Positions 23,580-25,058 of a DNA stretch of 64,000 bases are shown piece by piece. Position 1 is the first letter of the stretch, and every line of letters begins with the position of its first letter. Source of the DNA: Escherichia phage SSBS18_WS_10_728. Under the pieces are notes generated by a model. The model was given only the letters and a program-made list of their open reading frames with translations, did not search any database and was not told the DNA's origin. The stretch lies in the sequence record MT322327.1. The stretch is one strand, 5' to 3'. Position numbers and translations under genes: made by a program.

Positions 23580-23658
23580 TGGTACTCCATATCGGATTCG
23601 AACCGATACATAACACAGATTTTAAGTCTGGCCTCTCTGCCAATTGGAGTAATGGAGC
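23580..23658 (-). tRNA. tRNA with Leu anticodon TAA, short variable arm (provisional)
   Basis: Acceptor GCTCCAT/ATGGAGT, T-arm ATCGG-TTCGAAT-CCGAT, anticodon loop CTTAAAA, A73; no long variable arm found. Confidence 0.5.
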
Positions 23659-23660
23659 AT

Positions 23661-23736
23661 TGGCGGGGGATGTTGGAATTGAACCAACTTCTTCGATTTC
23701 AAAGACCGAGGTTTTAACCTTGTAAACTAATCCCCT
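23661..23736 (-). tRNA. tRNA-Gln (anticodon TTG)
   Basis: Anticodon stem-loop TCGGT-CTTTGAA-ATCGA, T-loop TTCAATT, G73. Confidence 0.6.
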
Positions 23737-23744
23737 TTAAATCT

Positions 23745-24302
23745 TTACTTTCTCAGTGGATGAATAAAGAATGCCAACATAACTCTTTCCCTTGAGAATG
23801 CTCTTTCTTCTGGGACAACACTTTTAAGTTTCCAACCAACATAAATTCTCCAGTAGAATTGTTTACCAAAGACTTTAATTGATGGGATAAAAGCGAATAA
23901 CCCCCAAGCATTGCTGTTCCACATTAGGAGATAACCTGTCTGATTATCTTCAGGGTCAGAGCTTACGTTGATATTACCTTTCCACTTAGTAACATCTTTT
24001 ACATCTCTTCCTAACACATGGTAAGAGAAGTTATAAGCTTTGTTTCTCCAGAGCCATCCAACTCTCTGCAAATAGACACCCAGCTTACCAATCTTTCTAA
24101 TCTTAGCCCATCTTTTAATGTGACCTTCATCACCATCAATAGGGTTGTCATATGTCTCCATCCATCTGAATCCAAAAGGTAGATGTCCTTTCTTCTCACT
24201 ATAGAATGGAACTACAAAAGGTGCTAAGATAACTGCTAAGATTGCTGCCAATGGGTCTAGCAAAGCTAGGAAAATCCATGAAGCATACTTCAAATATCTC
24301 AT
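23745..24302 (-). CDS. hypothetical membrane protein embedded in tRNA cluster
   Basis: 185 aa ORF fitting exactly between two tRNAs; N-terminal hydrophobic helices (IFLALLDPLAAILAVILAPFVV). Confidence 0.45.
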   Translation of the reverse strand: MRYLKYASWIFLALLDPLAAILAVILAPFVVPFYSEKKGHLPFGFRWMETYDNPIDGDEGHIKRWAKIRKIGKLGVYLQRVGWLWRNKAYNFSYHVLGRDVKDVTKWKGNINVSSDPEDNQTGYLLMWNSNAWGLFAFIPSIKVFGKQFYWRIYVGWKLKSVVPEERAFSRERVMLAFFIHPLRK

Positions 24303-24321
24303 TTAAATAGCCTCTTTAAAT

Positions 24322-24397
24322 TGGCGCAGGATAAGGGATTCGAACCCCTATTAACAGCTTCGTAGACTGTTGCTCTATCCATTTGAACTAATCCTGC
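24322..24397 (-). tRNA. tRNA-Arg (anticodon ACG)
   Basis: Acceptor GCAGGAT/ATCCTGC, anticodon stem-loop ACAGT-CTACGAA-GCTGT, T-loop TTCGAAT. Confidence 0.7.
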
Positions 24398-24402
24398 AAA
24401 AT

Positions 24403-24480
24403 TGGTGTTCCAAGACGGATTCGAACCGTCACTAGTACAAGGTTTGAGCTTGCATCCTCTGCCAATTGGGATACTGGAAC
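24403..24480 (-). tRNA. tRNA with Leu anticodon CAA, short variable arm (provisional)
   Basis: Acceptor GTTCCAG/TTGGAAC, anticodon stem-loop GCAAG-CTCAAAC-CTTGT, T-arm GACGG-TTCGAAT-CCGTC, A73. Confidence 0.5.
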
Positions 24481-24481
24481 A

Positions 24482-24556
24482 TGGTACTCACTAAAGGACT
24501 TGAACCTTTTTCTTCATCTTGTAATGGTGATGTTTTACCATATAAACTAAGCGAGT
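24482..24556 (-). tRNA. tRNA-Val (anticodon TAC)
   Basis: Acceptor ACTCGCT/AGTGAGT, anticodon loop ATTACAA, T-arm AAAGG-TTCAAGT-CCTTT, A73. Confidence 0.65.
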
Positions 24557-24557
24557 G

Positions 24558-24647
24558 TGGAAGAGGTCTGAAGTTGTGCCGCTAACTCAACTCCGTGGAA
24601 TTTGTTACGGTCTTCAGTTGACACCAGCGGTCTTTCACTTGACCTCT
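24558..24647 (-). other. 90-nt tRNA-like hairpin, not a canonical cloverleaf
   Basis: Perfect 7 bp acceptor-like stem AGAGGTC/GACCTCT plus TCCA 3' end, but no canonical T-loop or D-arm; contains AAGACCG motifs resembling the Y-like elements. Confidence 0.3.
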
Positions 24648-24651
24648 GAAT

Positions 24652-24728
24652 TGGTGCTGCTCACAGGACTCGAACCTGCATTTCCATCCTTACAAGGGAT
24701 GTGTAATAGCCAATTATACGAAAGCAGC
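24652..24728 (-). tRNA. tRNA-Thr (anticodon TGT)
   Basis: Acceptor GCTGCTT/GAGCAGC, anticodon stem-loop CATCC-CTTGTAA-GGATG, T-loop TTCGAGT. Confidence 0.7.
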
Positions 24729-24734
24729 ATTGTT

Positions 24735-24809
24735 TGGAGCATCCAGAGGGAATCGAACCCTCAACCTCAGTTTGGAAGACTGTAATTTTCCCGTTTAAAC
24801 TATGGATGC
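24735..24809 (-). tRNA. tRNA-Gly (anticodon TCC)
   Basis: Acceptor GCATCCA/TGGATGC, anticodon loop CTTCCAA, T-arm GAGGG-TTCGATT-CCCTC, U73. Confidence 0.7.
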
Positions 24810-24815
24810 ACTAAT

Positions 24816-24891
24816 TGGTGGAGTCACTGAGAATTGAACTCAGTTCCCAAGTTTGCAAAACTCGAATTTTAACCATATAAACTATGACCCC
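24816..24891 (-). tRNA. tRNA-Ala (anticodon TGC)
   Basis: Acceptor GGGGTCA with G3:U70 pair, anticodon loop TTTGCAA, T-arm CTGAG-TTCAATT-CTCAG, A73. Confidence 0.7.
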
Positions 24892-24897
24892 AATGTT

Positions 24898-24973
24898 TGG
24901 TACAGGTGGAGGGAATTGAACCCATCGTCTTACTGATTAAGAGTCAGCCGCATAACCATTTTGCTACACCTGC
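24898..24973 (-). tRNA. tRNA-Lys (anticodon CTT)
   Basis: Acceptor GCAGGTG/CACCTGT, anticodon stem-loop GCTGA-CTCTTAA-TCAGT, T-loop TTCAATT, A73. Confidence 0.6.
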
Positions 24974-24980
24974 ATTAATT

Positions 24981-25058
24981 TGGTAGGAGACAAGGGATTC
25001 GAACCCTCAAACACCAACTTCTAAGGATGGTAGGTTTACCAATTACCGTCAATCTCCC
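24981..25058 (-). tRNA. tRNA with Leu anticodon TAG, short variable arm (provisional)
   Basis: Acceptor GGGAGAT/GTCTCCT (two GU pairs), anticodon loop CTTAGAA, T-loop TTCGAAT, A73. Confidence 0.5.

Follow-up and report, generated by a model that had tools for sequence, protein, structure and literature searches.

Leucine tRNAs without a long variable arm in a Felix O1-like Escherichia phage and in other viruses

A 64,000-nt stretch of DNA from Escherichia phage SSBS18_WS_10_728 (sequence record MT322327.1), hereafter referred to as the window, carries three transfer RNA (tRNA) genes with leucine anticodons – UAA, CAA and UAG – whose variable regions are only 4–7 nt long and form no stem. Reviews of tRNA identity describe the long arm of tRNALeu as universal outside animal mitochondria (PMC9976931). 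The structure and conservation of the three tRNAs, their covariation and identity nucleotides, and the wide distribution of armless leucine tRNAs among viruses make it probable that they are genuine, functional phage tRNAs, derived from type II tRNAs by loss of the arm, charged by the host's leucyl-tRNA synthetase (LeuRS) and used to read UUA, UUG and CUA.

ARAGORN called the genes as Leu(taa), Leu(caa) and Leu(tag), all on the minus strand (Table 1), and both ARAGORN and Rfam placed them exactly where the original prediction, made by folding the DNA by hand, had put them. With the encoded CCA counted they are 79, 78 and 78 nt long (UAA, CAA and UAG, respectively), and A73 is present in each. 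All three belong to the Rfam tRNA family RF00005, folding into a cloverleaf made up of a 7-bp acceptor stem and D, anticodon and T arms, the T loop being conserved; their scores of 47.5, 43.6 and 40.0 bits (E-values of 4.5e-8, 5.1e-7 and 5.3e-6, in the same order) lie well above the gathering score of 29 and show that these are not chance matches. Plain minimum free energy folding misses the cloverleaf of these AT-rich tRNAs, and the folds described here are those of the covariance model and ARAGORN.

The variable regions delimited by ARAGORN comprise 7 nt (GTTATGT) in the UAA tRNA, 5 nt (CTAGT) in the CAA tRNA and 4 nt (GTTT) in the UAG tRNA. The CAA region is 6 nt long when the 26–44 pair is left uncounted, and the UAG region 5 nt long when U44 is included. 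By either count all three lack the stem-loop arm of more than 10 nt that marks type II architecture, and combine a leucine anticodon with a loop of the size found in natural type I tRNALeu. The folds thus returned neither a canonical long arm nor a different anticodon, and the hand folds, which had given molecules of 78–79 nt with A73 and short variable regions, proved correct. So did the contrast that had been drawn with two serine tRNAs and a tyrosine tRNA of the same cluster, which keep stem-loop arms at 93, 90 and 88 nt. The UAA and CAA tRNAs, which are paralogues, have nevertheless kept a D arm of type II style, with a 3-bp stem (CUC/GAG in the former, UCC/GGA in the latter) and an 11-nt loop, CAAUUGGCAGA.

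In Escherichia coli the determinants of leucine identity are A73, the A15:U48 pair, G18G19, A20a and the tertiary pairs linking the D loop to the T loop; leucylation is uncorrelated with the sequence or fold of the long arm, and variants without the arm are still active (Giege and Eriani, PMC9976931). Reading the folds of the three phage tRNAs nucleotide by nucleotide, we found U8, A14, A15, U48 and A73 in every one, together with G18G19 followed by N-A, and the T loop UUCGAAU with U54, U55, C56 and A58. The A15:U48 Levitt pair, accompanied by U8:A14, is predicted in all three, and the elbow pairs G18:U55, G19:C56 and U54:A58 should likewise form. Set against the E. coli loop GAAUUGGUAGA, the D loops CAAUUGGCAGA (UAA and CAA) and AAUUGGUAA (UAG) have G18G19 and A20a in the corresponding places, and all three anticodons fall within the leucine set, NAG or YAA.

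The five tRNALeu isoacceptor genes of E. coli K-12 provide a direct comparison. These are 85–87 nt long, with stem-loop arms of 13–15 nt; the phage tRNAs share with leuZ (UAA), leuX (CAA) and leuW (UAG) their anticodons, A73, A15:U48 and the elbow nucleotides of the T loop. The D loop of E. coli tRNALeu, GAAU(U/C)GGUAGA, and the phage loop CAAUUGGCAGA both comprise 11 nt after a 3-bp stem, agree in A14, A15 and G18G19, and have an A two positions beyond G19. One difference lies at position 37, which is G in the E. coli UAG isoacceptor and A in the phage UAG tRNA. A 1-methylguanosine at this position (m1G37) is typical of bacterial tRNALeu reading CUN codons, and with A37 this modification would be missing from the window UAG tRNA. 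Among viral tRNA-Leu with NAG anticodons, position 37 is A in 40 and G in 15 of the short-arm molecules, and A in 24 and G in 29 of the long-arm ones.

The window comes from a Felixounavirus, and over 200 Felix O1-like phages infecting E. coli, Salmonella, Shigella and Citrobacter show 96–98% identity to the region. The annotation 'tRNA-Leu (x3)' already appears in many of their records, so the genes themselves are known. Of the 272 phage records that match the UAA tRNA, 215 do so at 99% identity or more; when 5,426 complete genomes of E. coli were searched with it by BLAST, no match emerged, and hence no host or prophage source was indicated. More distant BLAST matches led to short tRNA-Leu in Lactobacillus phage Bacchae (UAG, UAA and CAA), Myxococcus phage Mx1 (UAA and CAA), Aeromonas phage AhSzw-1 (UAA) and Erwinia phage phiEa21-4 (CAA, AAG and UAA). 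The last, like the window phage, is a member of the Ounavirinae, and its homologue of the CAA tRNA has a wholly different acceptor stem.

To see how far the short-armed form extends among viruses we drew on two pattern scans of IMG/VR. The first targeted short-arm YAA tRNAs and gave at least 120 loci; being biased toward that class, and matching tRNA-Lys(CUU) besides, it served as a source of sequences and not of frequencies. It produced at least 161 tRNA-Leu with variable regions of 3–8 nt, mostly with a 3-bp D stem and an 11-nt D loop. The second used a generic pattern, T loop plus CCA, that does not select for arm length, and recovered 582 tRNAs. In this unselected sample 24 of 68 leucine tRNAs are short-armed, compared with none of 43 serine and none of 13 tyrosine tRNAs. 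The armless form is therefore common among phage tRNALeu, accounting for about a third of this sample. The same pattern applied to cellular genomes found no short arm in eight tRNA-Leu, a sample too small to give a firm rate, and the cellular baseline is consequently that of the literature. The original prediction had called the three tRNAs structurally atypical: this holds by comparison with cellular tRNALeu, but not by comparison with those of phages.

Most short-arm leucine tRNAs fall into two families. Family A, to which the UAA and CAA tRNAs of the window belong, has U8-A9 and the D arm YCC-CAAUUGGCAGA-GGR; among cultured phages it is matched, for example, in those infecting Streptomyces, Mycobacterium, Erwinia, Pseudomonas, Bacillus, Corynebacterium and cyanobacteria. 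Family B, which includes the window UAG tRNA, has U8-G9 and the D arm AYG-GAAUUGGYAUA-CRU, near to the E. coli loop, and is matched in hundreds of T5-like phages of Salmonella and E. coli and in Seunavirus. The leucine core is retained whether or not the arm is present: among viral tRNA-Leu, 143 of 150 with a short arm (95%) and 88 of 92 with a long arm (96%) have A14-A15-U48; of the other viral tRNAs of type I, just 408 of 1182 (35%) have A15:U48. A73 is found in 148 of the 161 short-arm molecules from the arm-selected scan and in all 24 from the unselected one.

An alignment of 142 short-arm tRNA-Leu shows that their stems are maintained. Cloverleaf positions are paired in 97.3% of cells, as opposed to 34–48% in controls with slid partners, although as evidence of pairing the percentage is partly circular, since the members were chosen by ARAGORN, which reports only sequences that fold. 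The circularity does not extend to covariation: double-sided changes are present at all 20 cloverleaf pairs, in 1,110 cells.

The origin of the short-armed form was approached by removing the variable region and the anticodon and asking which tRNA class lies closest. With other short-arm Leu excluded, 64 of 165 short-arm Leu have a long-arm Leu as their nearest neighbor, even though long-arm Leu make up just 6% or so of the remaining pool; in the opposite direction, short-arm Leu is the nearest other class for 67 of 99 long-arm Leu. Some near-identical pairs differ essentially by the arm alone, as do two UAG tRNAs of 77 nt (L092) and 84 nt (L085). Such pairs indicate simple deletion of the arm, probably on more than one occasion. 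On this model the three tRNAs of the window would descend from a long-arm, type II tRNALeu that lost its variable stem-loop.

For family B there is a relative with a genetic test. The tRNALeu1 of phage BF23 (tRNAL1, UAG; AJ604530) is 77 nt long, with a 5-nt variable loop and A73, and has copies in many T5-like Demerecviridae; BF23 and the window phage are alike in their E. coli/Salmonella host range. The window UAG tRNA is approximately 82% identical to it. Their T arms are identical, both contain the U30.U40 mismatch, and their acceptor and anticodon stems show compensatory differences; they part in the D arm, which in BF23 is regular (3-bp stem, 11-nt loop), whereas in the window tRNA one base is inserted and the stem is shifted. 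According to the GenBank entry AJ604530, swapping the anticodon to CUA 'converts this tRNA into effective amber suppressor'. Amber suppression in E. coli implies that a short-arm tRNALeu of family B is processed, charged and used there, and survival of charging after a change of anticodon is as expected of LeuRS, which ignores the anticodon. Phage T5 has, at the genomic position matching the short-arm gene of BF23, an 85-nt type II tRNALeu(UAG). The presence of either form at one position means that the two architectures are interchangeable in closely related phages.

Why only leucine tRNAs should have lost the arm has a ready explanation. Bacterial seryl- and tyrosyl-tRNA synthetases (SerRS and TyrRS) recognize the long arm. 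LeuRS does not use it (PMC9976931), and this difference would account for a loss confined to Leu. It is also conceivable, although we think it unlikely, that the loss is adaptive, allowing escape from host factors that recognize the type II arm, for instance defense nucleases or toxins directed at tRNAs, or abolishing mischarging by SerRS and TyrRS and so making the tRNA portable between hosts; such a benefit would add to the explanation above and not replace it. The idea draws on the frequency of short-arm Leu in viruses beside its absence from the cellular sample, and from cells generally as reviews describe them (PMC9976931), on apparently repeated loss (two families, and pairs differing only by the arm) and on the fact that Ser and Tyr were never armless in the viral scans. 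Targeting of tRNAs by way of the arm is on record elsewhere: the Mycobacterium tuberculosis toxin MenT3 is reported to have a marked preference for tRNASer (PMC11541572), and human SLFN11 is described in the literature as targeting type II tRNAs. Nothing in the window, however, ties the three tRNAs to a defense system, and T5 has kept the type II form. We know of no bacterial nuclease in enterobacteria that singles out the arm of tRNALeu. The same pattern is explained by neutral loss, in small genomes that evolve fast, of an element that can be dispensed with.

Several observations weigh against the conclusion that all three genes are functional and charged by LeuRS. The anticodon stem of the UAA tRNA contains a C27.U43 mismatch. 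The D arm of the UAG tRNA is irregular, with a UGA connector, a C.U outer pair, a GGU/ACC stem and a 9-nt loop, AAUUGGUAA; the same tRNA has the U30.U40 mismatch and the lowest Rfam score of the three, and the record MH571750 marks the corresponding gene 'pseudo'. With regard to charging, the amino acid inserted by the BF23 suppressor is unstated in AJ604530. Streptomyces coelicolor has a chromosomal type I tRNALeu(CAA), the only bacterial case described, with the 5-nt loop ACAGC and C48, that is charged by a LeuRS with an adapted leucine-specific domain (LSD) and for which A73 is no determinant; such tRNAs are reported to be rare, and E. coli LeuRS could not charge this one (Fan et al. 2019, PMC6614811). 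Work cited in the same paper hints that the LSD and C-terminal domain (CTD) of E. coli LeuRS favor or touch a large variable arm.

The structural irregularities would be understandable if one or more of the three, chiefly the UAG tRNA, were a decaying pseudogene or a tRNA-like RNA with no part in decoding: its score of 40 bits, its extra connector nucleotide, its C.U and U30.U40 mismatches and the 'pseudo' label all fit. We nonetheless judge this improbable. The irregularity of the D arm is conserved throughout Felixounavirus, where the anticodon stem varies only by compensatory pairs. The stem reads ACCAUC/GUUGGU in the window and AUCUCG/CGAGAU in Felix O1 (the alleles compared with the window being L371, from Felix O1, L372, L373 and L374), so that nearly all pairs differ; three of the changes are fully compensatory and another repairs a mismatch, with the remainder of the molecule unchanged. 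Compensatory change of this kind argues against decay. The U30.U40 mismatch also occurs in the BF23/T5-like tRNALeu that works as a suppressor, the acceptor stem, T arm, A73 and CCA of the UAG tRNA are intact, and the UAA tRNA is maintained at near identity in the 215 records noted above. As to their history, the alleles suggest either compensatory evolution or exchange of anticodon arms between co-infecting phage lineages. The anticodon stem of the window allele resembles that of T5-like phages such as BF23.

The observations on charging could be taken further, to mean that a synthetase other than LeuRS charges the three tRNAs, in which case leucine codons would be partly recoded in infected cells. 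Most non-leucine synthetases do expect a type I body, and E. coli LeuRS did fail on one natural type I tRNALeu (PMC6614811), yet we consider this very unlikely indeed. Charging by alanyl-tRNA synthetase (AlaRS) was rejected because G3:U70 is absent from all three, and charging by SerRS because none has a long arm; under established identity rules, synthetases that read the anticodon would refuse UAA, CAA and UAG (PMC9976931). The Leu-specific core is kept, and the codons concerned are heavily used at an ordinary leucine frequency (8%). Moreover, the S. coelicolor tRNA has C48 and is thus without A15:U48, a pair required by E. coli LeuRS, so the result obtained with it is not decisive for the phage tRNAs. 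Having retained the E. coli leucine identity set, these would be charged with leucine by the host LeuRS.

The loop of the S. coelicolor tRNA, ACAGC, resembles ACAGU, the commonest loop of viral family A; the comparison concerns this 5-nt loop only, and a common origin, or some other phage–host link, is possible. The family-A query finds matches in around 50 records of Streptomyces phages, and the hits sampled are annotated tRNA-Leu; the tRNA-Leu of Streptomyces phage Yaboi (L370:3001-3074) has the anticodon UAA. In Streptomyces UUA is a rare, bldA-dependent codon. Bolder still would be to regard armless tRNALeu as a general hallmark of phages, evolved repeatedly by deletion of the arm and kept by selection, with the S. 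coelicolor tRNALeu(CAA) a member of the same phage-borne family. We regard this as doubtful; were it true, the advantage would be a tRNA still accepted by bacterial LeuRS, safe from mischarging by SerRS and TyrRS, and overlooked by host factors that read type II arms. Animal mitochondrial type I tRNALeu also resemble the phage tRNAs in their short variable loop, with identity residing mainly in A73 and A14 (PMC9976931), but they are organellar and structurally relaxed, are served by a dedicated mitochondrial LeuRS and are unrelated in sequence to the phage families.

The window has a G+C content of 38.8%, and leucine makes up 8% of its codons. In 54 of its open reading frames (ORFs) the leucine codons are TTA (28.5%), CTT (27.5%), CTG (13.3%), TTG (12.9%), CTA (11.2%) and CTC (6.6%). 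In E. coli about half of all leucine codons are CTG, with CTA and TTA both rare. UUA, UUG and CUA are thus far more used in the phage than in its CTG-biased host, and the counts are consistent with the earlier proposal that the three tRNAs supply AT-rich codons. If the tRNAs are expressed, leucylated and used in translation, as we infer, the UAA tRNA would read UUA and UUG, the CAA tRNA UUG, and the UAG tRNA CUA and CUG (and possibly CUU, should U34 be modified). Their role would then be to provide for codons that the host serves poorly.

A literature search found no description of phage type I tRNALeu, although older work on BF23 and T5 tRNAs in subscription journals may mention it, and a search on Felix O1 tRNAs likewise found none. 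Provisionally, then, the genes were known and a homologue had been tested genetically, whereas the generality of the armless architecture appears to be undescribed. Common E. coli and Salmonella phages (Felix O1-like, T5-like and Seunavirus) carry natural armless tRNALeu, as do phages that infect Erwinia, Aeromonas, Lactobacillus, Streptomyces, Mycobacterium, Myxococcus and cyanobacteria. If the host LeuRS charges these tRNAs, they provide natural confirmation that bacterial leucine identity can dispense with the arm, and they would offer compact leucine tRNA scaffolds, ready to use in engineering suppressor and orthogonal tRNAs. Because annotators sometimes label short-arm tRNA-Leu as pseudogenes, phage tRNA annotation needs to handle them explicitly.

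Table 1. Leucine tRNA genes of the window, their variable regions and features of the surrounding tRNA cluster.
Feature	Position	Strand	Remarks
tRNA-Leu(UAA)	23580..23658	minus	79 nt with CCA; short-arm family A; ARAGORN and Rfam
UAA variable region GUUAUGU	23608..23614	minus	7 nt, stemless, last base U48; ARAGORN bracket output
tRNA-Leu(CAA)	24403..24480	minus	78 nt with CCA; family A; ARAGORN and Rfam
CAA variable region CUAGU	24431..24435	minus	follows A44, which ARAGORN pairs with U26
tRNA-Leu(UAG)	24981..25058	minus	78 nt with CCA; family B; ARAGORN and Rfam
UAG variable region GUUU (UGUUU with U44)	25009..25012	minus	last base U48
26-gene tRNA cluster with interspersed small ORFs	22385..27413	minus	ARAGORN; setting of the three Leu genes
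tRNA-Ser(GCU)	22465..22557	minus	93 nt, stem-loop variable arm kept; internal comparator
tRNA-Ser(UGA)	25314..25403	minus	90 nt, stem-loop variable arm kept; internal comparator
tRNA-Tyr(GUA)	26833..26920	minus	88 nt, stem-loop variable arm kept; internal comparator
471-aa ORF	27579-28994	minus	PHROG 850 'RNA-binding protein'; Pfam DUF2828 and DUF7788
185-aa conserved ORF	23745-24302	minus	DUF7338/phrog_2143; embedded among tRNA genes
244-aa conserved ORF	22559-23293	minus	DUF7217/phrog_2114; embedded among tRNA genes

The 471-aa ORF adjoins the high-coordinate end of the tRNA cluster, and its product, of RNA-binding type, may act on the 26 neighboring tRNAs. Directly 5' of tRNA-Leu(UAG), within a 255-nt non-coding gap, lies a hairpin-rich stretch (25054-25153, minus strand) that could be a processing or terminator structure; its only Rfam match, to MIR473, is below threshold at 30 bits and probably meaningless. 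A search of the cluster with sub-threshold Rfam matches admitted found no further tRNA-like element near the leucine genes.

Two further anomalies came to light among the viral sequences. Erwinia phage phiEa21-4 has a tRNA-like gene (L369:2528-2600), given in its record as tRNA-OTHER, to which ARAGORN assigns a 6-nt anticodon loop and a two-base 'anticodon'. Tyrosine, serine and leucine aside, there are viral tRNAs showing the opposite of arm loss: tRNAs for Ile and Asn and those with the anticodon CAU are normally type I, and among the IMG/VR loci recovered there are at least 19 viral tRNAs with the Ile anticodon UAU that are 90–96 nt long and have a long variable stem-loop (for example L011:4469-4560, L025:2693-2783, L032:4722-4815 and L033:2342-2432). 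Several of these have the motif CCAGAUUAG in the arm in common, and a long variable arm is also present in at least 11 viral tRNA-Asn(GUU) and six tRNA(CAU).

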